Assembly: GCF_041248615.1 (NCBI RefSeq)
Contig: NZ_CP158426.1
DNA: 64,000 bases
Source: Escherichia coli
Lineage (GTDB): Bacteria > Pseudomonadota > Gammaproteobacteria > Enterobacterales > Enterobacteriaceae
Strand: one strand, 5' to 3'
This document shows, one piece after another, positions 44,975 to 62,725 of the stretch (within the stretch, counting starts at the first letter, position 1; each line of letters begins with the position of its first letter). The notes below the pieces were generated by a model that made no database searches, was not told the DNA's origin, and was given only the letters and a program-made list of their open reading frames with translations. The translations under genes were made by a program, and so were the position numbers.

Positions 44975-45035
44975 TTTGTAGAGTATTGGCTTCAATGCCG
45001 CATTGTAGCTGGTTTATTTCTAATGCGGTTTTTGA

Positions 45036-45057: not shown

Positions 45058-45442
45058 GGTTTTTTCGGGTGCTTTGGCCAGAAGCCATTGTCTACATCCC
45101 TCACGATCGAGGTGTGTAACCATGTTCAGGCTTGTTGTCCTGCGCGCGCGTATTGCTCGTGAAATTGCTGTAACCAATAGTGATGTCCGAAAAAACCTCC
45201 GTTCTCACATGAAACAGCCATGTGCAACTGGTAACTGAATAGACTGGTAGACCGTTCGTTCAGTAAATACCTGATATTTTCGCCAACGAGAAATTGCGTT
45301 GGCTGGCAGAGTACAAATTTGCACGATGACCTAACCCATTGATTTTTTCGAAAACCTACAATGCAGGAAGCCGGATAACACCATTTTTATAGCTCCGATC
45401 CCTTCAAAGTGAGGGGGAATTTGCCAAAACAGAGAGAGAGCA

Positions 45443-45730
45443 TTACTGTCTCTGGCAATCTTTATCGCGATAACGCCTGAAGTACCCTCTCGCTTCCTCA
45501 TCCATACCAAGAGCCGAATGAGTCCGCTTAACTGCCTGTCTTAAATCTCCGAATCTGTCTGTAGTTGCTGGTGGGCGTGCCGCCTTACGGATACATTCAG
45601 AGCGTCTGTTTGCTGCATGTTCACGTTCTTTATCGCCATCTGCCAGCATCATGACTTCTGCCCATCGTGCGGCAGCTCTCCGGTATAGCCCTTTTGACTC
45701 CAGCTCTTCAGCTTTCCTGTCCCTTATCAT
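45443..45730 (-). CDS. PerC-family transcriptional activator
   Basis: 95 aa. MIRDRKAEELESKGLYRRAAARWAEVMMLADGDKEREHAANRRSECI... is the PerC/Pch signature (AEELE.KGLYRRAA.RW). Confidence 0.75.
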   Translation of the reverse strand: MIRDRKAEELESKGLYRRAAARWAEVMMLADGDKEREHAANRRSECIRKAARPPATTDRFGDLRQAVKRTHSALGMDEEARGYFRRYRDKDCQRQ

Positions 45731-45766
45731 TTCTGCCTCTCAGATTATATAGATAAGCAAAAAGGT

Positions 45767-45887
45767 GTTGGTTCAGTTGGTTCAGTTGGTTCAATTTGTA
45801 AAGATCGTTGTTTTTATTGTGTTTTTTCTGAAATGTTGAACCAACATCAACTCATTTTGAACCAACACAGCCCAGCTCTGAACCAAC
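45767..45887. repeat. Iteron cluster A: 3x GTTGGTTCA (contiguous, 9-bp period) + AT-rich spacer + 3x inverted TGAACCAAC (21-bp period)
   Basis: Direct copies are at 45767, 45776 and 45785. Inverted copies are at 45837, 45858 and 45879. Positions 45760-45804 are 45/45 identical to the reverse complement of 54129-54173. Confidence 0.8.
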
Positions 45888-45940
45888 AACACAGCGATAG
45901 CTTTGTGATTGGTCCGTTATTTTCTGGCTGATATTTGAGC

Positions 45941-45972
45941 GTATAACAGTGTTATACAGTGGTATACTGTAT
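45941..45972. promoter_or_regulatory. Two overlapping perfect palindromes upstream of the RHH gene (candidate operators)
   Basis: GTATAAC-agt-GTTATAC spans 45941-45957 and ATACAGT-ggtat-ACTGTAT spans 45954-45972. They lie 18-50 bp upstream of the ATG at 45990 and overlap TATAAC/TATACT -10-like hexamers. Confidence 0.5.
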
Positions 45973-45989
45973 GGATATTACTCACTGAT

Positions 45990-46430
45990 ATGGTCTTTGC
46001 AATGAGCAAATCTAATCTGATCGCGTTCCGCATCCCATCTGAATTGCAGGATGAGTTTAATCGGTCTGTTCTCGCTTCTGGAGGGGATAAAACCTCCTGG
46101 CTTGTTGATGCGATTCGCATGAAGCTGGGACAGCCGGAAAAGTCTATTGATTCACGAATGCTTGGGCTGGTGGAGCGCATGGAAAAAGCCGCAGCATCGC
46201 TTATTGCCGGAAAGCCGAACATCCCACCAAAGCCATATAACGAAACGGCAGTTATAAAGATCATTGCCGATACCATCCGACAGGGATTTGATAATGGGCG
46301 TGTGATAGCGGAACGGCTCAATGAAGCAGGCTACCAAACAAAAGCTGGTAAAGCGTGGGATAAAGACATTTACAGCGCGTGGAAGCGTCAGGGTAACAAT
46401 ATTAAAAGAATCAATACGCTGCTTCAGTAA
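45990..46430 (+). CDS. Ribbon-helix-helix-type DNA-binding protein with recombinase-like C-terminal domain
   Basis: 146 aa. The N-terminus SNLIAFRIPSELQDEFNRSVLASGGDKTSWLVDAIRMKL has an RHH pattern. The C-terminus ...IAERLNEAGYQTKAGKAWDKDIYSAWKRQ resembles the LN..G..T..G..W motif of the serine-recombinase 'recombinase' domain. The start may be 46002. Confidence 0.6.
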   Translation: MVFAMSKSNLIAFRIPSELQDEFNRSVLASGGDKTSWLVDAIRMKLGQPEKSIDSRMLGLVERMEKAAASLIAGKPNIPPKPYNETAVIKIIADTIRQGFDNGRVIAERLNEAGYQTKAGKAWDKDIYSAWKRQGNNIKRINTLLQ

Positions 46431-46459
46431 TTGATCAGTGTATAAATGATATTTATCGC

Positions 46460-47437
46460 TCAATCGCTCCCTTTCCGCCCTTCAGCTACAGGGTCGTTGT
46501 CGGCGATAACAAAACCTAAGTCCTGAGAGAATCTCTCTCGTGGGAATCCTTTAGCAGGTAAACCCATTGAATCATATCCACATCCGGGAACATTTGGTTT
46601 AGAGTCAATAAGGTCTGCAATTTGCCGAAGCCATGTTGATCCCGGACCAAGTCGTTTAACTAAGTACCAGATAATACAGATCGCGCTAAAAATCCTCTCG
46701 CAACTCTCTGGATGGAGATTAAGTCCGTCAAAGTATTCATTATCCGGTACTGGAACTCGGGGATGCTTTCTATTCCATATTCTGGAATGGTGAGCGCAAC
46801 GATTCCTTATGAGATTAAGGCACTTCAACCATTTTGCAAATGTCTGCTTATTATCAATGCCAAAACGACGTATAATTTTCCCCTGCATATGACCATTAAG
46901 CATCGCATAATATTTAGACATCTGACCAAAATCCCAGGTCTCCACCGCCACCCAAAATGGAATCTCCTTGCCTTGGCTTCGATGCCATTCAATACAGTCA
47001 TCTCTGCTTTCGTCTAATTTTACTTTTTGCTTATACACCCAATGCTCGAAGGCAGATGAGAATTTTGGATTAATGTATTTTGATGACATGTAGGCAAGTG
47101 GATCATTGCGACCAACCTCATGCGCGATGACTGAACGAACATGAATCTCTATTCTTTCGATAGCATCAATCATCAAAAGACGCAGTTTTTTGTCAAAAAG
47201 ATATAGATCGTACGTCTTCTCGAAACTGGTACCAGCAAGAAATCGGTCTGTTCTGTACGAAAGACCTTTATCTGTTGTCGCAATAATTCTTGATGGGTAC
47301 CAAAAACCTGACAATCGATAATATCCAACCTGCGACAGCTTACGTATCGCACGATTTCGATCATTGATAATCATGCCACGTTCAAGTAGCAATCCTAGCA
47401 ATTCGTGATAGTCCTTATGAGGCTTTGCGGCAATCAT
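46460..47437 (-). CDS. Abi_2 (AbiD/AbiF-like) abortive-infection family protein
   Basis: MIAAKPHKDYHELLGLLLERGMII...YYRLSGFWYP...FWVAVETWDFGQMSKYY...LNLIRNRCAHHSRIWNR carries the hallmark R/N..AHH.R.WN motif. The track ORF starts 15 codons upstream. Confidence 0.8.
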   Translation of the reverse strand: MIAAKPHKDYHELLGLLLERGMIINDRNRAIRKLSQVGYYRLSGFWYPSRIIATTDKGLSYRTDRFLAGTSFEKTYDLYLFDKKLRLLMIDAIERIEIHVRSVIAHEVGRNDPLAYMSSKYINPKFSSAFEHWVYKQKVKLDESRDDCIEWHRSQGKEIPFWVAVETWDFGQMSKYYAMLNGHMQGKIIRRFGIDNKQTFAKWLKCLNLIRNRCAHHSRIWNRKHPRVPVPDNEYFDGLNLHPESCERIFSAICIIWYLVKRLGPGSTWLRQIADLIDSKPNVPGCGYDSMGLPAKGFPRERFSQDLGFVIADNDPVAEGRKGSD

Positions 47438-47910
47438 AGTGGCGAAACAAAAGATAATAAAAGGCCCGACCGTGAAACTCACATGCCTGAAATCGGCGGC
47501 GGAGAAACAGAGGATCGGGCTCGGTTGCCTGTAACTCTATCCGAAGTTATCCACATGTCAATGCACAGTTACTTAGGAAACTAACATAGATACTATCATC
47601 ACTCACGAAAAACCACTATATGTGGTTTTTATTCATATTGTTATCCACTACAGGCTGTGTCAATAACTTTTACCTATTAATTGGGTAATTTCTACATTTT
47701 CCTATGCTGGCTAGTTTCTCTACTGAAAAGTTGGCACTCCTTAATCGCTTTTCGGTTAATACTATCGGTCTTCATATTGCCAGCAGCATACGCCATCCGA
47801 TAATTTCTATGCTACGCGCGCGTACTTGTCGCAAAATATCAGGCAAAGGCCAGATTCAGAACGTCGTGATAACCACCAGCACAACATGAGATGTCATGTA
47901 ACGCGATTTA

Positions 47911-48170
47911 TCACACCAGATACATGTGATTGGTGTACCCGCATAAAACATCGTCATAGCGCGTCCTGTGCGCATATACGCCGATAATCAACACATCACC
48001 ACCACTCTGTCTTATGTAGAGAACAGTTTTATGGTGCTCCCCGCCATCGTGTGCGTACTGGTCGGACGTAGTTGCAAAATTTTTTGCAACTGATACCCCT
48101 CGCGCGCGTACTGGTCACGAAATTGGTGTTTTGCTGTGGCAGTGATATCAGAAAAATCTTCCTGTTTCAC
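47911..48170 (-). pseudogene. Possible frameshifted RelE/ParE-like toxin remnant
   Basis: The N-terminal frame (from GTG 48170) reads KQEDFSDITATAKHQFRDQYAREGYQLQKILQLRP... A second frame, shifted by one nucleotide, reads ...HKTVLYIRQSGGDVLIIGVYAHRTRYDDVL...*. Joined, they would give about 86 aa with a ParE-like C-terminus. No antitoxin partner is recognised. Confidence 0.3.
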
Positions 48171-48309
48171 ATAAAGCGGATATGCGCGTACTGTAACGGC
48201 CCCATCAACTGGGAGCGGATTTGAAATCCCGACCCAAGCTATGTACCAAATGCCATGTCTTGGATATATGATGATTGCCATTCTAAACAACGCTAAAGGG
48301 AGGGTTGGT

Positions 48310-48708
48310 GTGAATCAATTGAAGCGATTGGTTGTCTCCGGTTTATTATTTGCTTCTTTTGGAGCGAACGCTGAATGCTGGATTATTGGTGATCTGAAAG
48401 GACAAGAAGCCTCAAGTTCAGATGGGTATAACTATAAGTTATCATCTATACCAGATACCTTTCATTTGGTAATAAGTAAAGAGAAGGCGGATCTTATCTT
48501 GGCAAAAGATGGTATAGGTGGAGGTATTGATTATTACCCGCTATCTCCGAATGCCATGATGGGAAGAAGCTATCGAGATGGTCAACTGACGCTTGTCACA
48601 TGGGCAATCTCAAATGACGGAAAAGTGATCCATACACGAACAATTAGTCGATCTGATATAGGCTCATTTACAGGCTCATTTGTCGGCAATGTTAAAGGCA
48701 AGTGTTAA
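48310..48708 (+). CDS. Secreted 132-aa protein of unknown function
   Basis: GTG start, 6 nt after AAAGGGAGGG. The signal peptide is (M)NQLKRLVVSGLLFASFGANA|ECWIIG. It is low-GC and I recognise no family. Confidence 0.6.
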   Translation: MNQLKRLVVSGLLFASFGANAECWIIGDLKGQEASSSDGYNYKLSSIPDTFHLVISKEKADLILAKDGIGGGIDYYPLSPNAMMGRSYRDGQLTLVTWAISNDGKVIHTRTISRSDIGSFTGSFVGNVKGKC

Positions 48709-48770
48709 TGTTCATAACTATTTGAAAAAAATACTAATTACTATTATAACCAACCATCCATGGCCATCTG

Positions 48771-50876
48771 TTATTGAGCTTCCTTTTGCGATGCTTGTGC
48801 TGCTGTGGTCAGTGATTGTGTGACCGTACTGATCGCTCTGTCATATGCTGTGCTACCTTTTGGCGTATTTGCCAGACGTAACAAGGCATTTCGTATAACA
48901 GGGCTTTCGTATGCCTTCGCTGCTCCGCCTACGGCACCAGCAGCAGGAACAACAAACGCAGCCGTTTTTAGCATCCCCGCTAATACTGCTGCGTTTATGA
49001 TGCCACCACCAACTAACAATCCATAAAGCTGCTGACCATTTAAGTTTTGAACGTTCGCTTTTGCCGCGTGTCTTGTATCGTTGAGGTATTTAATAACGCC
49101 GTCCAGTTCCTTTCCATGTACGCCTTTAAAGAAAGTTGCTGATTGCTTCCTGTTCCGGTGTAACGCATTAATAAACTTCTCAACACTGATATTTCCAGAC
49201 GGATCAGTCGCCTTATCTACAGCATTCTGAACTATAGCTGCTCGTGCGTTTTGCCTACCATTGTCATCCAGAAGCCTGTAAAGCTGAGAACGTTCTGATG
49301 GGCTTTGGCTAAAAACGAGTTTTGTTACATCCTCAGGCGTGGCCTTGCCGCTGGCTATTGCCTTTTGAACGCGCGTTCTTCCCATCATGTCATTGAATTT
49401 AGACCATGAGCGATCAACCCTTGCCATATTAATGGCTTCGTCTGCTCCAAGATTTTTGGCTACGGCTTTTTTCATATCCGCCGTATATGCCTTGTAGATA
49501 ATATCGCTGGCTTTCTGGAGCGTATCTTTATCAACAGTGTCAGATGACGCCATAAATCGCTTTCGAAGATCGGTTCTGTTTTCCCTCGCCAGACGCAGGT
49601 CATTTGGTCCGCTGGTGATATCGTCTTTAAATTGCTGCAAGACTTTTACCGCGGCTCTATCCTGAGATTTGCCCGGGCGGCTTAACACGGCAATCTGATT
49701 GTCGATAGCTTTTACCGTGTTTGAGAGATCGACAGGGGTATCCCCCATAGCGTCAATTATGCGGTTATATCGCTTTCCTGCTGCCTCAATGAATTTTTGT
49801 TGCCCTTTAGTCGCAGATTCATAAAGCTGTTTATCAGAAATGCCACCCAGACCATCGCTAAATGTTCTGACTAAATTTTCTCGTGCTTGTTGTTGATTCA
49901 GCCGATTCTTACCGGTTCCAAAAAAAGGAACTCTTTCGCCTAATGTCTGAGCCTGACTCTGCATAAAGGTTTTATCTTTCAACATGTCACTGGTCATTAA
50001 CGGCAGATTTCTTTCCGATGCAAAGTCGACAGCAGCCTTTGCTTCAGGCGACATATCACCACGAACAGCCCTCGAAACCGCACTCGCTGTATTTTCCAGC
50101 CCCTTACCAATACCACCAATGCCAGCAGAAATTACCGTTTGTAACGGATCAATATCTTCTCCACCAGCAAGGCTGGTGGCTCCCTGTAGTGCTAAATCTG
50201 TAGCTGCTGATTTCCCTATGGCCCCCAGCACCGTTCCGGCCCTGCCCGCTGGTGTAAACGCCAGCGCATTAGCCAGAAACGATGCCACGTCTTGCGGCGA
50301 TAAACCCGGCTTGTTCAGAGCATAATCACCGGATGGCAGGGAAACGATAGTGTTACCCTTCTCATCCTGCCTTAATTTCGCTCCCATGCTCTGAAGAATC
50401 TTTTCCTGAGATGCGTCAGAGCCGAAAAGTTGAGACCATCGAGCTTTTAGAGCATCCATGCTGAGTGAGGTTAACTCTGGGGCAAGGTCGACATTTTGCA
50501 GTCTCTCCATCTCTGGAGTCATTCGGCTTTCGCCTGTTATAGCATCGCGCATCGCAGCCCCAAGACTGGCTCCCTGTTCTGCTGAACGCTCAAGCCCCTC
50601 TCTTTGCTGAGTAGCTAACTTTGCATACCCTGACGCAAGAGAATTATCAGATGATGTATGTTGAATATTTTGAGTTGCTGATTGGTATCGGTCTATTTCA
50701 TTCGTTGATGGTAGTGGATAGGCAGCATAAAAAGCCTGCTTAGCCTGCTCTACACTTTCTCCGGCTTGCGGGGCAACGACTTCATTAAAGTATTGCTCCT
50801 GAGCCTGCGCTTTTTGTTCTGGTGCTAACGCCTGATACTGTGGAGAGGCGATAACATCTTTCCATGCTTTAGCCAT
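48771..50876 (-). CDS. P22 gp16-like ejection (DNA-transfer) protein candidate
   Basis: 701 aa and the last gene of the operon. It has ...KPGLSPQDVASFLANALAFTPAGRAGTVLGAIGKSAATDL... and a Gly/Ala-rich hydrophobic segment near the C-terminus (LLVGGGIINAAVLAGMLKTAAFVVPAAGAVGGAA). Position and size class match P22 gene 16. Confidence 0.5.
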   Translation of the reverse strand: MAKAWKDVIASPQYQALAPEQKAQAQEQYFNEVVAPQAGESVEQAKQAFYAAYPLPSTNEIDRYQSATQNIQHTSSDNSLASGYAKLATQQREGLERSAEQGASLGAAMRDAITGESRMTPEMERLQNVDLAPELTSLSMDALKARWSQLFGSDASQEKILQSMGAKLRQDEKGNTIVSLPSGDYALNKPGLSPQDVASFLANALAFTPAGRAGTVLGAIGKSAATDLALQGATSLAGGEDIDPLQTVISAGIGGIGKGLENTASAVSRAVRGDMSPEAKAAVDFASERNLPLMTSDMLKDKTFMQSQAQTLGERVPFFGTGKNRLNQQQARENLVRTFSDGLGGISDKQLYESATKGQQKFIEAAGKRYNRIIDAMGDTPVDLSNTVKAIDNQIAVLSRPGKSQDRAAVKVLQQFKDDITSGPNDLRLARENRTDLRKRFMASSDTVDKDTLQKASDIIYKAYTADMKKAVAKNLGADEAINMARVDRSWSKFNDMMGRTRVQKAIASGKATPEDVTKLVFSQSPSERSQLYRLLDDNGRQNARAAIVQNAVDKATDPSGNISVEKFINALHRNRKQSATFFKGVHGKELDGVIKYLNDTRHAAKANVQNLNGQQLYGLLVGGGIINAAVLAGMLKTAAFVVPAAGAVGGAAKAYESPVIRNALLRLANTPKGSTAYDRAISTVTQSLTTAAQASQKEAQ

Positions 50877-52297
50877 TAATCACCCCATAGTGAAGAAAAG
50901 TTACTGCTGGCTGCTGGCTGTGATACCTGCTCAGATTGCGGCAATGTCTGCGACGAAGAAGCAGTTCCTCTGTCAACTGCTGAAATAACCCGCAAAGCAT
51001 CATAAGTTCGACCAGAAGCAGCTTTCAGCGAATTGAACTGGTTTTCCATCTTCCGGCGCTTGGTATCAATGGTTTTTGTGGAGTCGCCAGGCTGAGGGAA
51101 ATACATTTGATAATATTTTGACATTTCAGCAGGTGCGATAGCTGCCCCTGTTTCCTGACGGAGTATTGCCATTATTGCGTCATTAGCATTAACAACGTAT
51201 TGCTGCTCTGCTGGGCTGAGCGTTAAGTTAGCCAGCGTCCCATTACCCAAAGCATTATTAATGATCGCCACTCGCTGTGGGCTAAGCTGGTCTTTCAGTG
51301 TATCTATTGAATCAAGAGCATCCCTAACCCTGTATGCAAATCCAGCAGCTTTTTTAGCCCCATCTGGCGACTTTTCCATGATCTTTTGGGCTGTTGGCAA
51401 AGCTATTGGACGAAACCCATCTCCAGATATTGGCTGGTTTAGTTTTCCCTGCTCTTCACTTCCGTCTGTGTAGTATTTTGTGACAGTGCCATCATCGTTT
51501 TCTCTAACACTCATTAATTTTTTGGCGTTTGTATTAATTCCAGCCGCTGCCGCAAATGCCGCCGCCCCCTCTGGATCCGCCTTTAACATTTGAGCGTACT
51601 GATTGTAATTCTGCATTGCTGCTGTTGGTGCATATGCTGACGTTAACGCATTTGCTCGGTTAATATCCTGCCCTCTCGCCTGAAGTGCTTCGCTGGCCTG
51701 ATTGCTGCGGATTGTCTCTGCCAACTTGCCACGTTCAATATCCCGACCTTCCATTTGATCTTTGATATCGAAATACTTCTCATGACCGAGAGAAAACAGT
51801 GCCATACTACCAGCAAGCCGCTGGAATCCCTGTGGATCATTAACATGCATTTCGGCAACAGACTCAGGAGAAATTCCCAGGCGACGCATTTCATCTTCGT
51901 TATCTGCTATGAATTTTCCAAATGCCCCAGTTCCGAGCGAAGATGCGATTTGAGCACTAGTCGCAAGATGACCAATAGAATTTCTCTGGTCGTCATCAAT
52001 AAAGCCCATCCCTTTCTGAACGCTTTCAAATTCTTCTGGATACTCAGAAATAAGACTGCGCATTTTGTTTCTGTCTCCAGACTCAAAAGCCCCGGCATAT
52101 GCTTTCTGAAACTCTGCTTTACGCTGTTGTTGACGTGCCTGCTGATTAATCTCAGCAACGCCTCTTAGCCCCTGTAGCGCCATTAAACCTACGTTTGGCT
52201 GCTGCTGATACTGCACAGGCTGAGGAACGGAAGAACGAGGAGCATTATCATTTTGCGGTGCCATGCTAGGCAGCCCGCCAAGTTGCCATGTCGCCAT
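50876..52297 (-). CDS. P22 gp20-like ejection protein candidate
   Basis: 473 aa (P22 gp20 is about 471 aa from memory). The N-terminus is Gln-rich. It overlaps both neighbours by 1 nt. Confidence 0.5.
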   Translation of the reverse strand: MATWQLGGLPSMAPQNDNAPRSSVPQPVQYQQQPNVGLMALQGLRGVAEINQQARQQQRKAEFQKAYAGAFESGDRNKMRSLISEYPEEFESVQKGMGFIDDDQRNSIGHLATSAQIASSLGTGAFGKFIADNEDEMRRLGISPESVAEMHVNDPQGFQRLAGSMALFSLGHEKYFDIKDQMEGRDIERGKLAETIRSNQASEALQARGQDINRANALTSAYAPTAAMQNYNQYAQMLKADPEGAAAFAAAAGINTNAKKLMSVRENDDGTVTKYYTDGSEEQGKLNQPISGDGFRPIALPTAQKIMEKSPDGAKKAAGFAYRVRDALDSIDTLKDQLSPQRVAIINNALGNGTLANLTLSPAEQQYVVNANDAIMAILRQETGAAIAPAEMSKYYQMYFPQPGDSTKTIDTKRRKMENQFNSLKAASGRTYDALRVISAVDRGTASSSQTLPQSEQVSQPAASSNFSSLWGD

Positions 52298-52974
52298 TAG
52301 AATCCAAGCCCCCCAACAAGACCAATAAGCCCACCACCAATAGCGCCGGCCGCAGTTCCTATTCCAGGAACAACGGAACCAAGTTGCGCACCCGCTAAAG
52401 CGCCTGATGCTGCCCCACCAATACCACGCGCAAGACTGGATGGCTGCTGCGCCTGACCTGCACGAATAGCGCCAAGCCCCTGCAAGAGTTGTCCGGTATT
52501 ATTGGCGTAGTTTTGCCCTGCCGTTGCCTGCCCTGATGCCGCATTCATCCCGACATTTAGCAGGTTTCCATAATTTTGCATTTGCCCACTAAGCCAATTG
52601 TTATAAAGCATGGGCGCAATGGAAGATAACTGGTTACTGGTAGCTGTTGAGCCAAGCCCCCCGGTAGCTTCTGCTGAGACAAGGTTCTGATAACGGGCCT
52701 GATCTGCCTGTGTTTTATATAAACCAGAACCAAAGAAATCATTCGCGGCTTTATTCTGCCCTTCCAGAGTCATCAGTCCTTGTAGTTGTTGTAAAGCAGG
52801 CAATCCGACTTCTGCATACGGCTTGAGATTATTCATCACCGTATTCCACTGCTCGCGCTGCAAATCAATTGCCTGCTGCTGGGCCTTCGCCTGAGCTTTA
52901 GAGGCACCACCATCACCGCCTTTTTCGTATACGGCACGATTGAGATGTTTATGAGCTATATGGGTAATTAACAT
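52297..52974 (-). CDS. P22 gp7-like ejection protein candidate
   Basis: 225 aa (P22 gp7 is about 229 aa from memory). ...YEKGGDGGASKAQAKAQQQAIDLQREQWN... and the Gly-rich C-terminal tail GIGTAAGAIGGGLIGLVGGLGF resemble gp7-type DNA-transfer proteins. Confidence 0.55.
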   Translation of the reverse strand: MLITHIAHKHLNRAVYEKGGDGGASKAQAKAQQQAIDLQREQWNTVMNNLKPYAEVGLPALQQLQGLMTLEGQNKAANDFFGSGLYKTQADQARYQNLVSAEATGGLGSTATSNQLSSIAPMLYNNWLSGQMQNYGNLLNVGMNAASGQATAGQNYANNTGQLLQGLGAIRAGQAQQPSSLARGIGGAASGALAGAQLGSVVPGIGTAAGAIGGGLIGLVGGLGF

Positions 52975-53429
52975 TCGCTGAATTCCTTATATTGTTGCCG
53001 AGTTAACTGATAAAGCGTTACGCCGACGGGTTTACCACATCTGATATAAGCATCATCAAGGTGACCAACACGGGTAGCGCCAAGCAAACGGATAATTGCC
53101 CGTCCGTATTTCGTGGTGTCAGGAACCATAGTGATGCTGTTAAGGAATGGTGAGTTTTCGAGAAGCCATTTGCAGAATAATCGATGCCCTTGCAGTGCAT
53201 ATTCACCACGGAATCCGGGGTCGTACACCGCATGGCATTCAACAATGCTATGCCAGAAGTTACGCACTTCATGAACGCCAGCCAGCACCAATCCTTCGTA
53301 GATGCCGAGATATACCGCATCAGGCTTGATGTAGTACGTGTGCCCCGGCTCAACAATATTTTCGGTATTGCCAGGATCGTTAAGAAAGGCCTGTAATCGC
53401 ACAGGGTTATCAATAAATTTTAGTTCCAT
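52968..53429 (-). CDS. 153-aa protein in the position of P22 gene 14
   Basis: It precedes the gp7/20/16-like genes with a 7-nt overlap. MELKFIDNPVRLQAFLNDPGNTENIVEPGHTYYIKPDAVYLGIYEG... looks like a small alpha/beta (acetyltransferase-like) protein. The assignment rests on synteny only. Confidence 0.4.
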   Translation of the reverse strand: MELKFIDNPVRLQAFLNDPGNTENIVEPGHTYYIKPDAVYLGIYEGLVLAGVHEVRNFWHSIVECHAVYDPGFRGEYALQGHRLFCKWLLENSPFLNSITMVPDTTKYGRAIIRLLGATRVGHLDDAYIRCGKPVGVTLYQLTRQQYKEFSEC

Positions 53430-54191: not shown

Positions 54192-56951
54192 TCATTCTTC
54201 AGATGAGTTATAATCTCCTGGCTGGTAATTGAGTACATAAACGTTTATTTGTCGTCCCTGAATACGTGGTGATTTTCTTTGGTATCCACGACCGCTGTTT
54301 GGTGGGGTTAGCATCCCGGCTTTTTTCAACACTTCAGCAAACTGTTTTGCGTTGAAACCACATGCGATCTCCTTTTCAAATGTGGCCGGGAATGTGTAGA
54401 AAATCATTGGGCTTTCGTCATGTTCTCCACGCTGACGGTATCCGGCTAAATCTTTGATGGGCAAATCTGCCGGGCTGTATGGAAATGGTGCAAAACGGCT
54501 AAGCCCATAGGCATTAAGAAATGCCTCCGTTTGTTCAATAATCTGCTGATGCTCTTTGTTACCTGTGCCGAACTCGCGCAACCATGCGTTATAGCTGTGC
54601 TGTATCGCATCACGGCATGTCTGAGCATCCCAGCCTGTTACAACCTCGCCTAACAACAATGCGGCCTCCAGAATGGCAAATCGCGCGGCTACACGGTGAA
54701 CCTGCTCACCATAATCGGATGGGATCAGGCTTCTCCATCTGCTTTCGCAGTCACGAACGGTTTTAATAGCCTGTTGCTGGTGGTCTGCCAGCCATTTAAT
54801 CCACTCACGCCCGGACGCGCCGTGGTGATGCTGGTAAGCGTCTTTCAGTGCGTCTGCGTGCTGTTTTCCGTTCTGGTAATCGTGAAAGCGTACTGCTTTA
54901 CTCAACGGAATATTCAGCAGTCGCACCAGTTGCCCGGCTTTGGTTTTTCGCCCGGAAGTAGCGATAAATGTTTCTAAATCCATTTCTCCGGTGCTGATTG
55001 CCACTGTACGCCAGCGTTTTAGATCCCGGTTTCCACCATCTTTAGCGCCTTGCAGTTTCCCTACACCGTTAAATAACGCATAGGCAGACTGTGAAACGCT
55101 GACAGGATCAGCGCCCTGACCAACTTCATCAAGCGGCATTAGTCCGTCATTGTGGGCGGCGGCCTCATTTGCCAGCCCCAGCGCGGTTCCGTACCACGTC
55201 AGCCGCAGTAAATCAGGGTTGCCGTATAAGCTGCTCGCCACGTTTGCCGTGGTGGTCTTACCTGCGCTCGACTGCTCATAGAAATGAATGCCGAACCCGT
55301 CAGCGCCCACCAGCCCAATCAATGGCGCTGCCAGTGCTGCGCCGATCCCGGTCATCATTGAATAGTTACCAAAGGCCAGACGCGCCACGTTATCACGCCA
55401 GCTTTTCGCGCTCCCTGAGACGGTATATCCGGCTGCGGCTGAGCTTCTCCCGCTGAACAGCACAGGATTTTCAGGTGTTCCGATGATTTCCCCATCAGGC
55501 ATGATGTACGCTCCGCATTGCCAGCCAGTGGCATGAGCAACACGCCACAATTCACGAGAGCCACTGCGTTGTAGCCAGTCTGCCAGTATTGCTCTGAGGC
55601 TGCTTTTGGTCGTGACATTTACCCCACCAGCTTTAAGTGTGCGCCATCCTTCACGTTCACCAATATCAGCCAGTGGAATGGCAGCGGTTGTCGGCGTTTC
55701 AGAACCAAACGACAGCCAGCGAAGAATGAGATACTGGTCTTTATCGTCTCTGCCAGTACCGATAACGCTTAACGGAGAACATAACCAGCTTTCGTTATTG
55801 ATGATTTCTCCACTCTGGCTGTCAGCTCTCGGAGATACCCAATAAATACCATCCTCGCGGCTTTCTATTCTTGGTTTCAGTGGATCGGTATCCATAACCT
55901 TAAAATCGCTTCCCTCAATGGTCTGTGGCTCCTGTTTCACGCCATTACCCTGTGGTTGGTACATTGACTTATTGAACGCTTCTGTGGCGCATTTAATGCC
56001 GTGTTTTTGGTGGTAATCATTCCAGTCTGCTTTGTGATCTGTCGGGGGTAATGCCACCCATCCAGAAACAGATAAAGCTGCTTTTTCTGCTGCTATTCTC
56101 CCCGTGTTTTGTCTTCCTTCGCTGTGGTCGTTATCCGCAGCAATGATGATTTGTGCTGAAGGAAATTTATCCCGCAGTACCTGGGCGACATATAACAGGT
56201 TCCCGGCATCAATCGCCGCCACTGTCAGCGCCTCTGGACGAATTAAATGGGCAGATAATGCCGTTGCCAGCCCTTCTGCGATTAAGATGCTCTGTGTTGT
56301 TTCTGGTGCGTTTATGGCGTGATATGCCCCCCGCTTTGCTGAACCTGTCAGGAGTCTTTTTTCACCATGTGAGGTAATAGTCTGTGCTGCTGTGACTGCG
56401 CCGGATTTATCCACCAGCGCCAGCAACAGAGATCCATCGGGCAACACGGGGAATGTAAAATCACCTACCCCTTTCGCAACCAGATAATCAGATTTGCCGT
56501 TTACAGCCTTTCTGCGCATGTCATCAAACTGACGGGAAAACGTATCCCGTCTTTGTTGTTCGTCCTTCTCTGCCCTTTTCAGGCGCTCCTGTTCGCGTCG
56601 CTGGCGCTCGGTTTCCAGTTGTTCCCGTTTCTGGCTGGTGGCTTCTGGTGTTTCCGTTGTCCGGTAATCAATACCCAGAACATCAGCGGCAAGAAGCGCC
56701 GCCTCTGTTGTGTCGCAGTTATTTACGCGTTTAATTAAATCCAGCCCATCACCAGCGCCGCACTGATTACAGATGAAGCTACCGCGCCCGTTGTCATCGA
56801 ACCGGAATCGATCTTTGCCCCCACATGCAGGGCAGGGAGCATGACGGCGCGGAGAGTCAGGGACATTTATGTTCAGGCAGCCCAGCACATGAGGCCAGTT
56901 GTTTTCAGACGCACTGATAACCTGACGGATAAGATCAATGTTTCGCATCAC
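54192..56951 (-). CDS. P4 alpha-like primase-helicase (Zn-ribbon + Toprim + DUF927/SF3-type NTPase)
   Basis: 919 aa with Zn-binding CPACGGKDRFRFDD...FICNQCG. Toprim motifs are ILIAEGLATALS and IIIAADNDHSEGRQNTG. Walker A is YEQSSAGKTTT. Confidence 0.85.
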   Translation of the reverse strand: MMRNIDLIRQVISASENNWPHVLGCLNINVPDSPRRHAPCPACGGKDRFRFDDNGRGSFICNQCGAGDGLDLIKRVNNCDTTEAALLAADVLGIDYRTTETPEATSQKREQLETERQRREQERLKRAEKDEQQRRDTFSRQFDDMRRKAVNGKSDYLVAKGVGDFTFPVLPDGSLLLALVDKSGAVTAAQTITSHGEKRLLTGSAKRGAYHAINAPETTQSILIAEGLATALSAHLIRPEALTVAAIDAGNLLYVAQVLRDKFPSAQIIIAADNDHSEGRQNTGRIAAEKAALSVSGWVALPPTDHKADWNDYHQKHGIKCATEAFNKSMYQPQGNGVKQEPQTIEGSDFKVMDTDPLKPRIESREDGIYWVSPRADSQSGEIINNESWLCSPLSVIGTGRDDKDQYLILRWLSFGSETPTTAAIPLADIGEREGWRTLKAGGVNVTTKSSLRAILADWLQRSGSRELWRVAHATGWQCGAYIMPDGEIIGTPENPVLFSGRSSAAAGYTVSGSAKSWRDNVARLAFGNYSMMTGIGAALAAPLIGLVGADGFGIHFYEQSSAGKTTTANVASSLYGNPDLLRLTWYGTALGLANEAAAHNDGLMPLDEVGQGADPVSVSQSAYALFNGVGKLQGAKDGGNRDLKRWRTVAISTGEMDLETFIATSGRKTKAGQLVRLLNIPLSKAVRFHDYQNGKQHADALKDAYQHHHGASGREWIKWLADHQQQAIKTVRDCESRWRSLIPSDYGEQVHRVAARFAILEAALLLGEVVTGWDAQTCRDAIQHSYNAWLREFGTGNKEHQQIIEQTEAFLNAYGLSRFAPFPYSPADLPIKDLAGYRQRGEHDESPMIFYTFPATFEKEIACGFNAKQFAEVLKKAGMLTPPNSGRGYQRKSPRIQGRQINVYVLNYQPGDYNSSEE

Positions 56952-57306
56952 CGTACCCCACGTGGTCTATAGCGTTTGCGATATGGCTAACCAGCATCTG
57001 CCACTTGGTTATTCCGTAATCAGTCAGCATGCCATCATTGTTTAGCCACATATCAAATTCAGCGGTTGTCGCAAGTTTCCACTTATCGCCGTGGACAGTC
57101 CTCATTGCTGGGTACATGAATGCGCAAATCAGATCACAAACATCTGACGGCTTCAGAGATGTAGTAATGGTGCGTCCCTCTGGCGTCTGAATTGCCATTT
57201 TCTCTTCACCAGTAGAATGAAGGTTATGAATCCACACAGCACCAGCAATCTTTGCCACCTGCTCTCCGATTGCGGAGCTAAGCGCCATTTCTGCATTTTC
57301 ACGCAT
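56935..57306 (-). CDS. Hypothetical protein (123 aa)
   Basis: Part of the translationally coupled chain, with a 17-nt overlap with the primase and an 8-nt overlap upstream. No family recognised. Confidence 0.5.
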   Translation of the reverse strand: MRENAEMALSSAIGEQVAKIAGAVWIHNLHSTGEEKMAIQTPEGRTITTSLKPSDVCDLICAFMYPAMRTVHGDKWKLATTAEFDMWLNNDGMLTDYGITKWQMLVSHIANAIDHVGYGDAKH

Positions 57307-57640
57307 GAGAACCTCCCGCTACAGTTGCGCCCATGTCATTAACCATGCTTTGCCATATCTCACGCCCGACGTCAGTCAATCCGTCCTTAGTGACGCAACG
57401 CTCAAGAAGCTCGATCCCCACGGTTTCCCACTGCGGGTAGAACACTTTCATGGCTGCCAGTGTGTAGCTATCGATCAGGCTGCGAACGCCTTTTACTCCA
57501 TTGACGATTTCCACACGTACGGCCTCGCCGTCCGCATCAACCATGAAATAGTCCCCGCCGCTGGTGGAGGTAATGTGGTTATACAGTGCCGACGCATACT
57601 TATTTGCCAGCGCATTCAGTCGGAAATTTTTAGTAATCAT
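57299..57640 (-). CDS. Hypothetical protein (113 aa)
   Basis: Same operon, with plausible globular composition. No family recognised. Confidence 0.5.
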   Translation of the reverse strand: MITKNFRLNALANKYASALYNHITSTSGGDYFMVDADGEAVRVEIVNGVKGVRSLIDSYTLAAMKVFYPQWETVGIELLERCVTKDGLTDVGREIWQSMVNDMGATVAGGSHA

Positions 57641-57650
57641 GGCTCCATCC

Positions 57651-58253
57651 TCAGTGCGTCACTGGTTCCGCTGGCATGCCGTTTTCATTCAGTTCAGCTA
57701 TAAAGCTGTTGTGAAGTTCAGCAAGCGTTTCACGACCAAATGGAGTCAGTGCTCCTTGTTCCACATCCATCATGGCTCTGTAGAAAATGATGGCGCGTTC
57801 TGTGCCAGACTCGATGCCAAAACGTTCTATCATCGCGCCCTCAATGTTGTTTGCCATAGCGAGGCGCTCTGCTACTGGATACAGCGGCATGGCGACGATG
57901 CCGTTGGAATAAACAGCCACTTCGGAAGGATTGCCAGTATCATCAATGATGCTGACAGTGCCGTTTTCCTCTCTCATTTCCAGCATGAATACTGTTGCGA
58001 TCAGCCATCTCCACATAATGACGTTATGCTGTGATGTGTAATCGAAATATCCCTGGTTGCCGCCATCGGCTATAGCGAGATGTATTGACATGCCTTCATC
58101 TGGTTTATCGTCATAATCCCCGGCATCCAGACGATTTACGGCATCAATATATGAGACGGTCTCAACGCGTTCTGTCATGCCATCGTTGCTGCGGTGCATG
58201 ATGTTTACGCCGTCAGGCGTTGCTTCTGCATGGAAGGTTAAGAAATTATTCAT
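57651..58253 (-). CDS. Hypothetical protein (200 aa)
   Basis: I take the start as MNNFLTFHAEATPDG.., whose ATG overlaps the upstream stop (ATGAATAA). The track ORF extends 35 codons further over the upstream gene. Confidence 0.5.
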   Translation of the reverse strand: MNNFLTFHAEATPDGVNIMHRSNDGMTERVETVSYIDAVNRLDAGDYDDKPDEGMSIHLAIADGGNQGYFDYTSQHNVIMWRWLIATVFMLEMREENGTVSIIDDTGNPSEVAVYSNGIVAMPLYPVAERLAMANNIEGAMIERFGIESGTERAIIFYRAMMDVEQGALTPFGRETLAELHNSFIAELNENGMPAEPVTH

Positions 58254-58467
58254 GTTTCGCCTCGCCTGAATGATTCTGTAACTCATATTTGCCCAACAAT
58301 TCGTCCGCTTCCTGAATAGCTTCTGGTACGCCATTGAGCAGTGACATAACCGCGCCAATCATTAACTTGTCTCTGTTGCTGGGGCTGGCCCCTTCAAGCC
58401 AGAACCCTAAAACAGTCTGAACCTGTTCGATGCGACATTGCGCTTCAATGAGCTGGATGTTGGTCAT
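58246..58467 (-). CDS. Small helical protein, paralogue set member (73 aa)
   Basis: MTNIQLIEAQCRIEQVQTVLGFWLEGASPSNRDKLMIGAVMSLLNG... shares SPS.RD.KL with the 72-aa protein. Confidence 0.5.
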   Translation of the reverse strand: MTNIQLIEAQCRIEQVQTVLGFWLEGASPSNRDKLMIGAVMSLLNGVPEAIQEADELLGKYELQNHSGEAKHE

Positions 58468-58727
58468 TTCGCACTCTCCACATCGATTAAACTGATATCT
58501 ATCAGGGAGGTAACTTTTTGTAGCCAGCTATTGATTACTGTCGCCTGCTCCCCTCCCACCGAGGGAATAATCTCATTCATCACATGAACCAGACCTGTGC
58601 GCGCTCTGGTAAGCCGTTCAGTCGCGCAATCTGCGGGAGTGAATGTGTCTGGATATGGCTCTTCACTCCCCAGCAATGATTCAATTTCCAGCTCACACGG
58701 ATGACGATAAATTAAGTTGATATTCAT
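58464..58727 (-). CDS. Small helical protein (87 aa)
   Basis: Has 4-nt overlaps on both sides and a two-helix pattern. Confidence 0.45.
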   Translation of the reverse strand: MNINLIYRHPCELEIESLLGSEEPYPDTFTPADCATERLTRARTGLVHVMNEIIPSVGGEQATVINSWLQKVTSLIDISLIDVESAK

Positions 58728-58918
58728 TTTTCACCCCCAAGAATTACCAGCTCTGCACGGGCATCGTTAACCAAAGATGAGCACGCTTTAATCGCATCCA
58801 CGACATCAGTAGCGTCCATTTCTTCAGCCGAAAGACTGACAGCAACCAGGACAGCCGCTGCTTGCTCGATTAATTGAAGTGCGGACGTAAGGCGAGGGGT
58901 ATTAATTGAGTTATTCAT
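58724..58918 (-). CDS. Small helical protein (64 aa)
   Basis: ...LTSALQLIEQAAAVLVAVSLSAEEMDATDVVDAIKACSSLVNDARAELVILGGEK. The C-terminus L..GGE resembles that of the 72-aa protein. Confidence 0.45.
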   Translation of the reverse strand: MNNSINTPRLTSALQLIEQAAAVLVAVSLSAEEMDATDVVDAIKACSSLVNDARAELVILGGEK

Positions 58919-59129
58919 TGGTTGCCCCCGTTTTTACTGGCATTTCGCCACCTTCCAGCAGGAAATGAACGTCACGAACGGCGAGATCCAATATCGCGAG
59001 TAACGCCTTCAGTTTTTCGTCTCGTGAGGGAGAGTTGCTCACCAGAATGTCATTAATCACTTCTGTCAGTGTGATGATCTGGCTTGTGCGTTCGAGGGGG
59101 TCCATATGCACATCGTAGGTTTTAATCAT
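58911..59129 (-). CDS. Small helical protein (72 aa)
   Basis: MIKTYDVHMDPLERTSQIITLTEVINDILVSNSPSRDEKLKALLAILDLAVRDVHFLLEGGE... Its ATG overlaps the stop of the Icd-like gene (CATGATTAA). It is in the same frame as the long 342-aa track ORF. Confidence 0.45.
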   Translation of the reverse strand: MIKTYDVHMDPLERTSQIITLTEVINDILVSNSPSRDEKLKALLAILDLAVRDVHFLLEGGEMPVKTGATNE

Positions 59130-59316
59130 GTGCCACCTCCATGCGGATACGACCAGCAAAAAAGCAGACGTGATCGCGCACCAGAGAACGGCGAGCATCG
59201 CGTTCAGACTCGGCAGCAATATGATGAATTTTGGCGGTAATTGTCGGGCAATCGCGGCGAACTGCGGCGATAATCCAGATAAATTGCGGTTTTTGGGTAG
59301 GGGTAGTAGCCAGCAT
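59122..59316 (-). CDS. Icd-like (P4-type host cell-division inhibitor-like) protein
   Basis: 64 aa. MLATTPTQKPQFIWIIAAVRRDCPTITAKIHHIAAESERDARRSLVRDHVCFFAGRI matches the KPQF/Y.W...A..R...A..E.EARR.L....FAGR pattern I remember for Icd-like proteins of P4-like prophages. There is a strong SD (AAGGAGG) 7 nt upstream. Confidence 0.6.
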   Translation of the reverse strand: MLATTPTQKPQFIWIIAAVRRDCPTITAKIHHIAAESERDARRSLVRDHVCFFAGRIRMEVAHD

Positions 59317-59379
59317 GTGGCAGCCTCCTTGATTGATGGTTTATAGCCACCGCCGGAGGTCCTAAGCTCGCTGGCGGTG

Positions 59380-59450
59380 GACTGTACAGGGTTAGGACTA
59401 CTGGCAATCAAGGAAACCAGCCTGACCGAAGTCAGCCCCATACAGCCCAC
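59380..59450 (-). ncRNA. Candidate P4 CI-like immunity RNA (seqB-bearing segment); boundaries approximate
   Basis: The minus transcript contains GGGGCUGACUUCGGUCAGGCUGGUUUCCUUGAUUGCCAGUAGUCCUAACCC. The motifs GAUUGCC and GUCCUAA are complementary to an upstream site (59514-59536) and a downstream site (59359-59365). CCUUGAUUG is complementary to the SD region of the Icd-like gene. Confidence 0.35.
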
Positions 59451-59480
59451 CATTGATAAGGTGTGCGTGTGCGCCGATAC

Positions 59481-59501
59481 AAAAAAAGACGCTGGCGCGT
59501 C
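59481..59501 (-). terminator. Short GC hairpin + U7 inside the leader (candidate immunity-controlled terminator)
   Basis: The minus strand reads GACGC-gcca-GCGTC-TTTTTTT. It lies between the seqA-like and seqB-like elements. Confidence 0.4.
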
Positions 59502-59932
59502 ATGTATCGCCTCGATTGCCTGCGGGGTCCTAATCCCGGCACCCGTTTTATGAGGTGCCTTATAACCATAAACCGTGTTGCCGCATAACGGCAAGCTCTT
59601 TTTTATGGACTCCGAAAACTCACTATTGGAAGAACCAGATGCACAATACATCGCGCTCATTTCGTTAACGTCACGCGCATGGACGAAGGTTTTTGTGGAG
59701 TCACTACGCGAGAAGAGAAAGCCATCTACGACCAGAAATTCTCTGGCGCAGCCGCTGACCTTCTCAACGCTAACACCATCGACCGTAATTTCTGACATGG
59801 TTAAGGCATCCGCTCCTACCACCAGCAAATGACAAACTTTGCTTGTATCTGCTGTATTAATGCCTGACTTTGCTGTCATATTGCTGGATTTTGGCGACAT
59901 ACCAGCCAGTGAAAATATCTTCTTCTGGACGG

Positions 59933-60115
59933 TTAGCATTTGTTAACCTCCGCGAACTCCTTCATGAAGCGCGCCAGCGGTTGTACGCATGGCGATTGAT
60001 ACCCGTCGCGATAAAACGTCACTCGGTTGTGAGACACGCTTTCGACAGTAACGAGTGCTCCGTGGGCATCTTTGTAGCGTTTTTGTGGTTGTGGTATTCC
60101 TGTTGGCTTAGACAT
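59933..60115 (-). CDS. DUF4222-like small protein (60 aa)
   Basis: MSKPTGIPQPQKRYKDAHGALVTVESVSHNRVTFYRDGYQSPCVQPLARFMKEFAEVNKC shows the pattern KD..G..V.V......V.F.RDGY......P...F.K.F. Its ATG overlaps the upstream stop (AATGTCTAA). Confidence 0.5.
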   Translation of the reverse strand: MSKPTGIPQPQKRYKDAHGALVTVESVSHNRVTFYRDGYQSPCVQPLARFMKEFAEVNKC

Positions 60116-60953: not shown

Positions 60954-61385
60954 TTAGGCGGCGTTAAACGCGTCCGGGTAGAGTTTCAGAATGTCGGCAA
61001 TTTCCTGCTGAGAAAGTCCGTTGTGATCATTTATGTTCGCAAGATGGTTAACATGAGTGATCACTTTCAGAACATCACCACGGCAGGAGAAACGGTAGCG
61101 AAGGTGTGTTCCGATACCATCAGGATTCTTTTCGTCGATACGCTCCAGAGTGATTCCAAGCTGGCGTTCTAACTCTGTTGCATAGTTACGACCAGAAGAC
61201 AGACGGCAGTAGCGAAGAATGTCATTTTCTGTCCATCCCTCTATACCAGTACGCAGCATATAGACTCGGGCACGATGCTTTTTCGGTGTGCGCTTTGGTG
61301 CTTGAAGGGATTTTGTAAGGGGCGTAATATCAGATACGCGAATATCTGAATTAGCCGCCTGTAATGGGCGGTTTTTCTTTTCCAT
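60954..61385 (-). CDS. Hypothetical protein (143 aa)
   Basis: Overlaps the AlpA-like gene stop by 1 nt. The N-terminus is basic. No family recognised. Confidence 0.5.
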   Translation of the reverse strand: MEKKNRPLQAANSDIRVSDITPLTKSLQAPKRTPKKHRARVYMLRTGIEGWTENDILRYCRLSSGRNYATELERQLGITLERIDEKNPDGIGTHLRYRFSCRGDVLKVITHVNHLANINDHNGLSQQEIADILKLYPDAFNAA

Positions 61386-62074: not shown

Positions 62075-62725
62075 TTAGTCGAGATCGTGGACAGCTAATA
62101 AAGCCCGTGAGATTTTTTCTAGGAATGTGGCTTTTGCTATTCCTTTATGGGATATCCCTTCATCCTTGATTAAGGTTTCTATGTCACGGTATATAGCTGT
62201 GCGATTAGGTTTCCCATTTTGGATGTAGGAAGATGAGCCTGATTTTTTTATCAGCAGATGTACTATCAACCCCATCATTTTCATTGTCCCGTTTTCCTCA
62301 TCCTGCTTTCTATGCTGCCCACGTCCGCTGCGGTTGGTTTCTTTGATGTAGTTTACTAACTGGAGTCCTCCAAGGTTTCGGGCTTTTTCTTCCCAGCCCT
62401 TGGTGCCACGCAAATCATCAATCGCTTCTGATATTTTCTGAACAATTATTTCTGGTGTATTTGTGTCAATAAATGGGTAAGAAGCTAAGAAAATATCAAG
62501 GGCATGGCAAGGCTCGTCTTTACTAGTTTTTTCACCTCTGTACACCTTGATAGCTCTGGCAAGATGAGTTCTGACAAAATCGACATATTCGAAATTTTCC
62601 TCAGGCACATCGCTAATGCGCATAGATGGGTTTAGGCCAGCCAAGGCCACAGCCATTTCATGAGGGGTAATCGATACAGATGAACAAAGCCGTTCGATTG
62701 GCGATTTTCTCAAGATGTTGTTCAC
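62075..62725 (-). CDS. Hypothetical 216-aa protein coupled to the integrase gene
   Basis: The GTG start overlaps the integrase stop (GTGA). GC is lower than in neighbouring genes. No family recognised. The alternative start is Met24. Confidence 0.5.
   Translation of the reverse strand: MNNILRKSPIERLCSSVSITPHEMAVALAGLNPSMRISDVPEENFEYVDFVRTHLARAIKVYRGEKTSKDEPCHALDIFLASYPFIDTNTPEIIVQKISEAIDDLRGTKGWEEKARNLGGLQLVNYIKETNRSGRGQHRKQDEENGTMKMMGLIVHLLIKKSGSSSYIQNGKPNRTAIYRDIETLIKDEGISHKGIAKATFLEKISRALLAVHDLD

Follow-up and report, generated by a model that had tools for sequence, protein, structure and literature searches.

The window analysed here is a stretch of 64,000 nt (64 kb) of Escherichia coli DNA (contig NZ_CP158426.1), and the element in question is the RNA leader that lies on its minus strand directly in front of a gene for a small Icd-like protein. 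Unless stated otherwise, all features given below are on the minus strand and are described in the direction of transcription. A preliminary description of the stretch had proposed that this leader carries a P4-type immunity system, in which an RNA called seqB pairs with an upstream site (seqA) and a downstream site (seqC). All the motifs named there were found on the minus strand, within one base of the positions given: TTAGGAC at 59533-59527 and 59365-59359, GTCCTAA at 59398-59392, GGCAATC at 59520-59514, GATTGCC at 59409-59403, and CCTTGATTG at 59413-59405 with its partner CAATCAAGG at 59335-59327, each by a sequence check.

Transcription of the leader would start at a promoter (59565..59594) that we regard as the counterpart of P4 PLE, with a -35 hexamer TTGCCG (59594-59589), an 18-nt spacer and a -10 hexamer TATGGT (59570-59565). 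This promoter was located by conservation across loci, a generic promoter scan having missed it. In 65 related loci the hexamers CTTGCY and TATAGT/TATGGT stand at fixed positions, the latter at -12 to -7 relative to the 5' end of the isrK-like RNA, and the P4 geometry TTGCCT-18-TATAGT matches the TTGCCG-18-TATGGT of the window. The extended -10 suggested earlier (TTATAA, 59565-59560) had to be given up, as the hexamer conserved in those loci is placed 5 nt further upstream. The 5' end of the leader transcript is predicted at G59558 from the start of the isrK model.

The first RNA of the leader (59481..59558) is isrK-like and corresponds to seqA, as indicated by an Rfam match, folding and a terminator scan. 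The isrK covariance model (RF01394) matched 59558-59482 with 63 bits, against a gathering score of 50. In the predicted fold, hairpin 1 (59558-59539) is followed by hairpin 2 (59538-59523), which shows the a-site UUAGGAC (59533-59527) in its loop, by a single-stranded b-site GGCAAUCGAGG (59520-59510), and by an intrinsic terminator, GACGC/GCGUC (59501-59488) with U7 (59487-59481), where the isrK match has its 3' end. Three hairpins, the last of them an intrinsic terminator, characterize the isrK family, and this is what the window contains. The upstream site had been placed at 59536-59514; the site itself is genuine and starts at 59537. The GC hairpin with U7 reported at 59501-59481 was recovered independently by the terminator scan. 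Another model, c4-a1b1 (RF03163), stayed below its gathering score of 46.7 bits, with 14.8 bits in the window and 44.1 in P4; because the isrK model captures the same element, this is a sign of a narrow model and not of a missing site.

Downstream of the terminator lies the C4/CI-type antisense RNA (seqB) of 88 nt (59370..59457). The Rfam C4 antisense RNA model (RF01695) matched 59457-59370 over its full length (model positions 1-87) with 80.2 bits (gathering score 45), and so the covariance-model check suggested in the preliminary description returned both C4 and isrK above their gathering scores. A closing stem of 17 bp (59452-59436 with 59391-59375) encloses hairpin I (59435-59422), hairpin II (59421-59400), with the 12-nt loop b' UUUCCUUGAUUG at 59416-59405, and the single-stranded segment a' AGUCCUAA (59399-59392), which contains GUCCUAA. 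The exposed segments of C4 are thus a' GUCCUAA and b', the latter given as UUUCCUUGAUUGCC / CCUUGAUUG (the loop UUUCCUUGAUUG plus CC). What had been called a middle segment is real and turns out to be this loop together with the single-stranded linker of the C4 RNA. When the C4 RNA was folded alone, the minimum free energy structure was that of the family model (-42.4 kcal/mol, z -4.4). The C4 RNA has a hairpin-like substrate shape and a GCCA tail 3' of its stem; P4 CI and P1 C4 are processed by RNase P (PMC5499578).

The seqC (a2) hairpin, CCACCGCC/GGCGGUGG (59347..59380), exposes UUAGGAC (59365-59359) in its loop, and the arms CCACCGCC/GGCGGTGG described earlier for 59380-59347 are present. 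Its 5' arm (59380-59373) doubles as the 3' arm of the closing stem of C4, so that the seqC hairpin and this stem are mutually exclusive. Further downstream, the b2 site CAAUCAAGGAGG (59324..59335) can pair with all 12 nt of the C4 loop at 59416-59405 and overlaps the Shine-Dalgarno sequence AAGGAGG (59330-59324), from which there are 7 nt to the ATG at 59316. The 9-nt match of 59413-59405 to 59335-59327 noted before is therefore part of a longer contact that involves the entire loop.

This ATG opens the Icd-like/Kil-like first gene (59122..59316), which encodes 64 aa and matches NCBIfam phage_ICD_like with 71.7 bits, in agreement with its earlier labelling. With the same profile, P4 Kil scores 76.1 bits and a P1-like Icd 49.8 bits, and the protein of the window is 39% identical to P4 Kil. 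Homology and position are those of the first gene under immunity control, and the control itself is proposed by analogy. A C-rich, G-poor stretch (59220..59350, C/G 1.6-2.1) extends over the ribosome-binding site and the first ~30 icd codons and is, by its composition, a candidate Rho loading region when icd is untranslated. The downstream operon (54192..59129) is the replication zone, with six small open reading frames (ORFs) and a 919-aa Toprim/DUF927 primase.

Pairing and covariation across related leaders

To compare the leader with its relatives we used a set of 66 loci with a gene for an Icd-like protein, taken from a single genome per species, mostly of Enterobacterales, and custom covariance models built from the window, P4 and a Stx phage. 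With these models, C4 was found directly upstream of the Icd-like ATG in 66/66 loci and an isrK-like leader in 65/66, the exception being interrupted by a contig end. The order promoter, seqA with terminator, C4, seqC hairpin, Shine-Dalgarno and icd/kil was common to the sampled loci, and the terminator after seqA was invariant in 68 loci. The helices within each RNA are well maintained by compensatory change: those of C4 were paired in 99.8% of cells, with 14 compensatory pairs (66 sequences), those of the seqA leader in 95.3%, with 10 compensatory pairs (66 distinct sequences), and the seqC hairpin in 99.1%, with 4 of its 8 pairs compensatory.

Intermolecular pairs were predicted from the window and counted on a MAFFT alignment of 68 whole leaders (66 distinct). 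For C4-seqA, 84.6% of cells were paired, compared with 58% after shuffling, and the covariation was 0.691, compared with 0.196 in shuffled alignments (reached in 0 of 500) and 0.07-0.15 in controls in which the sites were slid. For C4-seqC/RBS, the second contact, which includes the ribosome-binding site (RBS), the corresponding values were 90.7% and 66.7% for pairing, and 0.640, 0.208 (again 0 of 500) and 0.09-0.14 for covariation. Of the two 7-bp a helices, one was paired in 99.8% and the other in 100% of cells, and 6 of 7 positions showed compensatory changes; the fully paired one is the a'-seqC helix, which bears out the complementarity of GTCCTAA to the downstream loop. The helix between b2 and C4 was 85.3% paired, with 9 of 12 pairs compensatory, and b2 always lay over the Shine-Dalgarno sequence in the leaders compared. 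The seqA-seqB-seqC logic of the preliminary description is in this way supported by compensatory covariation in 68 leaders.

In the window itself, the proposed 7 + 7 bp between the middle segment and the upstream site are real, and the b'-seqA part extends to 11 bp (59413-59403 with 59510-59520, one G.U). Folding of the full read-through leader predicts a cis duplex between seqA and seqB alongside the seqC hairpin. Of the TTAGGAC/GTCCTAA copies in the 64-kb window, 3 of 4 fall inside 175 nt, where ~0.013 would be expected, and both exact window copies of CAATCAAGG/CCTTGATTG are located in the leader. A search for copies of the a- and b-motifs through the 64 kb found no further C4 RNA targets.

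The pairing is also specific to each leader. Mean cognate and non-cognate duplex energies at the four C4 contacts (68 leaders) were -9.4/-3.7, -11.4/-5.4, -9.5/-4.2 and -12.8/-6.0 kcal/mol, so that cognate duplexes were ~6 kcal/mol better than foreign ones at all four. Among the leaders there are 12 types of a' and 24 of b' in 36 combinations, which indicates that immunity specificity is modular and was reassorted many times; shared ancestry alone would be a hard explanation of this pattern.

Relation to known immunity systems

The leader resembles the immunity region of P4 (NC_001609) in the order of its elements, and the same two Rfam models match the seqA leader and CI RNA there. Both have a terminator with U7 after seqA, a seqC hairpin presenting the a-site, a b-site over the Shine-Dalgarno sequence of a 64-65-aa Kil/Icd-like gene, a primase operon downstream, a homologous promoter geometry and a long frame that enters the leader from upstream. 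In P4-like prophages, IsrK has been equated with the seqA RNA and C4 with the CI RNA (PMC3632133, PMC4825925). The two differ in specificity, which is GUGAGAA / UUCACAGG in P4 and UUAGGAC / CAAUCAAGG in the window, and the C4 part of P4 CI is only 66% identical to that of the window. The spacer between terminator and C4 is 107 nt in P4 and 24 nt in the window, the long frame is in phase with kil in P4 and out of phase with the icd-like gene here, and P4 carries psu, sid and delta, whereas the element of the window is without these and has a P22-like late zone instead. As regards the spacer, most P4-type loci have 60-107 nt, often with an inverted repeat (e.g. GGGCTGTGGTG...CACCATAGCCC), and only ~24 nt were observed in the window, the Stx phage, the P1-like phage and two of the sampled loci (L004 and L006).

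The architecture is equally that of P1/P7 immI (a1b1 - c4 RNA - a2b2 - icd - ant), and the same Rfam matches were obtained in a P1-like Punavirus. The P1-like C4 scaffold is 83% identical to that of the window and has the same short spacer; the first gene is again Icd-like, with b2 over the icd ribosome-binding site. The earlier designation as P4-type thus holds for the logic of the system, while in its scaffold it comes closer to the P1/lambdoid branch of this family. In P1 an antirepressor is controlled downstream, whereas the window controls replication genes, and the P1-like specificity (a' GGCCAA, b' CCUUGGAC) differs from that of the window. Biere, Citron and Schuster are said to have described, in 1992, translational repression of P1 icd with Rho-dependent polarity on ant.

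Among the reference phages compared, the closest similarity was to the Stx-converting phage F039 (LC710660, annotated with isrK and C4), one of the Stx-converting and other lambdoid phages that have such a cassette. It is ~90% identical over exactly 59557-59295, its C4 being 97% identical to that of the window. The a', b' and a target sites are identical, and the b target sites deviate by one or two bases (GACAAUC in seqA and an extra C before the RBS site). In contrast to the window, the first gene of the Stx phage encodes a 215-aa Rha-family regulator and not Icd, no open frame runs through the leader, and the flanks are unrelated. The similarity begins at the leader 5' end and ends ~20 nt into the ORF, and these limits indicate that isrK-C4 is a portable regulatory cassette. 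With the same a'/b', the cassette precedes the 64-aa Icd-like gene, a different Icd-like gene of 62-88 aa, or the 215-aa Rha-family gene.

The RNA on which the IsrK family is defined belongs to IsrK - STnc1160/orf45 - anrP of Salmonella Gifsy-1. It occurs as a short terminated and a long read-through form, with a C4-like processed RNA downstream (PMC4825925). Gifsy-1 differs from the window in that IsrK acts in trans to activate orf45-anrP translation, which leads to prophage induction, and in that the downstream gene is an antirepressor.

The long frame, the proposed mechanism and its alternatives

A frame of 342 aa (58911..59939), labelled 'ash family protein', crosses the whole RNA leader, continues through icd in the +1 frame and joins the next ORF because of a ATGATTAA overlap. 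It is probably translated, since GGAGG lies 7 nt upstream of its ATG (59939) and this ATG overlaps the DUF4222 stop (ATGCTAA). The preliminary description had pointed to an Ash-type frame over the same DNA; the label is that of RefSeq and Pfam, and we read the frame as a counterpart of P4 eta. Pfam Phage_ASH (PF10554) matched with 54.1 bits (gathering score 26) only at aa 124-219, i.e. nt 59570-59283, which is the RNA leader. The PHROG matches, several of which are labelled repressor or regulator, likewise cover only aa ~106-220, and phrog_29966, 6928, 995, 3960 and 821 match only the structured-leader segment. Phage_ASH and several PHROG 'repressor' families therefore look like translated versions of a structured RNA leader.

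Across the related loci, the frame is open through the whole leader in 65/68 and in phase with icd/kil in 62/68, P4 included. The in-phase frames begin ahead of the leader RNA, by 51-120 nt and sometimes by ~350-420 nt, and the nine leader-length classes of the in-frame loci are all multiples of 3. No third-position excess was seen across the leader, where the mean column entropy by codon position was 0.64, 0.70 and 0.66; changes in the leader compensate base pairing, not amino acids, and the N-terminal 123 aa of the long frame are barely conserved except above the promoter DNA. We rejected the idea that the long frame, or a leader peptide, evolves as a protein, given this lack of codon periodicity and the little-conserved N-terminus outside the promoter. 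It is the frame itself, not the peptide, that seems to be under selection. Selection for openness of the +1 frame through icd was rejected as well, because that frame is open in 44/68 loci regardless. Forti et al. reportedly found in 1999 that translation of P4 eta from an upstream promoter, and not the eta product, lets transcripts escape immunity-dependent termination, and it is this P4 frame that we presume the 'Ash' frame of the window to match.

All this makes it very probable that the leader is a lysogeny-maintenance immunity switch of an integrated phage satellite, of the C4/CI antisense-RNA kind found in P4 and P1/P7. In such a switch, a presumably constitutive promoter, TTGCCG-18-TATGGT, would start transcripts at ~59558. 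Part of them would stop at the hairpin with U7 and give a ~77-nt IsrK-like RNA that contains target site 1 (a1 looped, b1 single-stranded), and the rest would read through. The 88-nt RNA (59457-59370) would be excised from the read-through transcripts, its 5' end presumably by RNase P as in P4 and P1. It would then pair in trans with nascent leaders, at seqA by 7 + 11 bp, and at seqC by 7 bp in the hairpin loop and 12 bp over the icd/kil-like Shine-Dalgarno sequence. Translation of icd would be blocked, the C-rich stretch may be exposed to Rho, and transcription would end before the small genes and the primase, leaving the island quiescent; both the Rho step and this direction of regulation are modelled on P4 and P1. 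By analogy with eta, escape would be provided by transcripts of the upstream alpA-antA-DUF4222 operon that are translated through the leader by the 'Ash'/eta-like frame, since this translation would prevent RNA pairing and termination.

Several points weigh against this interpretation. The promoter is weak, with 8/12 consensus matches by a hand count, and falls below the threshold of the generic sigma-70 scan. The stable RNA, its ends and its effect at this locus are predicted from models and from the related systems, and the Rho dependence is suggested by base composition. The window and two relatives (L003 and L007) have lost 1 nt before the ATG, with the result that the long frame is shifted to +1 relative to icd. 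The in-frame nesting of P4 kil/eta is thus not exactly reproduced in the lineage of the window; a TAA stands in the icd frame there, 27 nt ahead of the ATG, and the read-through frame still exists. Finally, alignments built with covariance models favour the modelled intramolecular structure, and the 68 leaders are related, so that the shuffle statistics are inflated; a purely phylogenetic effect is made less likely by the slid controls and by the way in which a' and b' types reassort.

The same elements can be arranged in other ways. The short IsrK-like RNA could be the key activator in trans, either by pairing with seqB in the read-through mRNA or by decoying free C4, and thereby open the ribosome-binding site; this is a tentative possibility, the main rival to the reading above, and one that may coexist with repression by C4. 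In Salmonella, IsrK activates in trans the translation of its own read-through mRNA, and the C4-like STnc1160 lies downstream (Hershko-Shalev et al. 2016, PMC4825925). The leader of the window matches the isrK model, the invariance of the terminator in 68 loci points to a discrete short RNA as a conserved product, and the seqA-seqB pairing in cis predicted for the read-through leader would suit such activation. In P4, however, genetics has shown that seqA is needed to establish immunity, not to relieve it. The requirement for an IsrK-like element in P4-like prophages of S. Typhi (Barquist et al., PMC3632133) also fits a repressive or maintenance role. Alternatively, seqA could be the main point of action, with C4 binding strengthening the adjacent hairpin-U7 termination and the RNA chiefly autoregulating its own synthesis and read-through, a possibility that was also raised for STnc1160 (PMC4825925). 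The b-site pairing at seqA is indeed the strongest contact of the window (11 bp, -19.2 kcal/mol, compared with -13.4 at the RBS), and it ends 8 nt before the terminator stem. The three extra seqA pairs are absent, however, from the other 64 distinct leaders, and the RBS is, on the average of all leaders, the better-paired b contact (-12.8 compared with -11.4 kcal/mol); moreover, the constant position of b2 over the Shine-Dalgarno sequence is hard to explain if seqC were dispensable, and no antiterminator alternative was evident in the folds. We therefore consider this arrangement unlikely.

The remaining two readings concern the status of the locus as a whole. That it is a plain protein-coding gene for an 'Ash family' repressor, with incidental RNA motifs, would agree with the open 342-aa frame, its good Shine-Dalgarno sequence and coupling to the upstream gene, the 54 bits of Phage_ASH, the repressor or regulator labels of several PHROGs, and the openness of the frame in 65/68 loci. 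Yet the family matches cover only the RNA-leader part, the changes follow base pairing with no third-position excess, the first 123 aa are barely conserved, and in the lineage of the window the frame was shifted relative to icd with no sign of a loss of RNA elements. P4 'cI' itself was shown to be an RNA. This reading is hardly credible. A module that is intact and idle, on a decaying remnant incapable of excision or replication, would account for the departure from a classical P4 (psu, sid and delta absent, a mixed late zone) and for the frameshift between the long frame and icd, and is nevertheless improbable: no element of the module is damaged, there are open frames for integrase, alpA and primase, a 141-nt stretch is at least 99% identical in 34 chromosome records, a 601-nt region is found in 233/5426 genomes, and the layout is that of functional gram-negative phage-inducible chromosomal islands (PICIs; PMC10111431).

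The immunity switch proposed here belongs to a system already known, and its accepted model is unchanged; the value of the analysis lies mainly in the correction of annotation. In RefSeq NZ_CM132268, which contains an identical region (8762-9790), there is a single 342-aa 'ash family protein', and the icd-like coding sequence and both non-coding RNAs are unannotated. Recognition of the switch indicates which island genes would be silenced, namely the replication operon, and the a'/b' pair defines the immunity type of the island. The comparative set gives a clean view of modular immunity specificity (12 a', 24 b', 36 combinations), and of a frame apparently kept open for the act of translation and not for its product. 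The one point that is out of the ordinary is the immunity specificity common to a satellite island and Stx-type phages; this would allow RNA cross-talk. We rate it as quite unlikely that the island and Stx-converting lambdoid prophages do communicate by RNA through their common a'/b' and near-identical targets; if they did, the island C4 could silence phage rha, and a burst of the phage IsrK-like RNA could titrate island C4 and wake the island, i.e. an RNA-based sensing of another mobile element. Stx phages were also considered as helpers of the island on account of the same specificity, and this link was found to be unsupported, as the late genes resemble those of P22-like podophages.

The host island and its distribution

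The island that carries the leader adjoins yicC in E. coli (identical RefSeq region). In transcript order, it begins with an integrase, a 216-aa protein, AlpA/HTH_17, a 143-aa protein, AntA, DUF4222 and the leader, and continues with the Icd-like gene, six small ORFs, the Toprim/DUF927 primase, DUF2824, P22 gp7, an injectosome translocase, a 701-aa injection protein, Abi_2, PerC and Bro-N. It falls into four zones: int with AlpA, Bro-network genes (AntA, Phage_ASH) with C4/isrK, the primase, and captured late genes. Among the ORFs between 43.9 and 63.9 kb, psu, sid and delta were not found, and the island fits the layout of a gram-negative PICI better than that of a P4-like satellite. Mageeney et al. 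(2023) reported C4 and isrK matches in the 'Bro zone' of gram-negative PICIs, and Phage_ASH among the Bro-network domains (PMC10111431). We see no essential difference from these Bro-zone RNAs, and the present island, beside yicC and carrying P22-like ejection proteins in its late zone, adds a further example.

In 233 of 5426 complete E. coli genomes, matches cover at least 80% of the 601-nt region with its flanks. For the 141-nt stretch from C4 to the RBS, 34 E. coli chromosome records show an identity of at least 99% and ~50 others one of 90-95%; those sampled among the latter are prophages of Shiga toxin-producing E. coli, in which a Rha-family gene follows the stretch. Strains NCTC9040 and 21AR0303 of E. 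coli are among those in which the module is identical. Exact copies of the 25-nt seqB are present in 11 IMG/VR contigs, where they precede three different first genes. Enterobacterial icd/C4 modules were also met in assemblies labelled Vagococcus sp., a Ferruginibacter metagenome-assembled genome (MAG) and a 'Proteobacteria' soil MAG, and these are likely due to contamination or mis-binning.

The distal part of the island (43908-53429) contains the late genes, which are 85-95% identical at the nucleotide level, in patches, to those of P22-like E. coli/Salmonella podophages, and it also holds the Abi_2 abortive-infection gene, a PerC-family activator and a Bro-N protein. At the other end, the 216-aa ORF (62075-62725), which overlaps the integrase stop, had no Pfam or NCBIfam match, and the 143-aa ORF after alpA (60954-61385) had no match in Pfam, NCBIfam or PHROG. 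Elsewhere in the window there are an isrC small RNA (150 bits, 9050-9172, plus strand) and tRNA-Sec (selC, 25487-25581, minus strand). Since selC is a classical island insertion site, the window may include a second horizontally acquired region.

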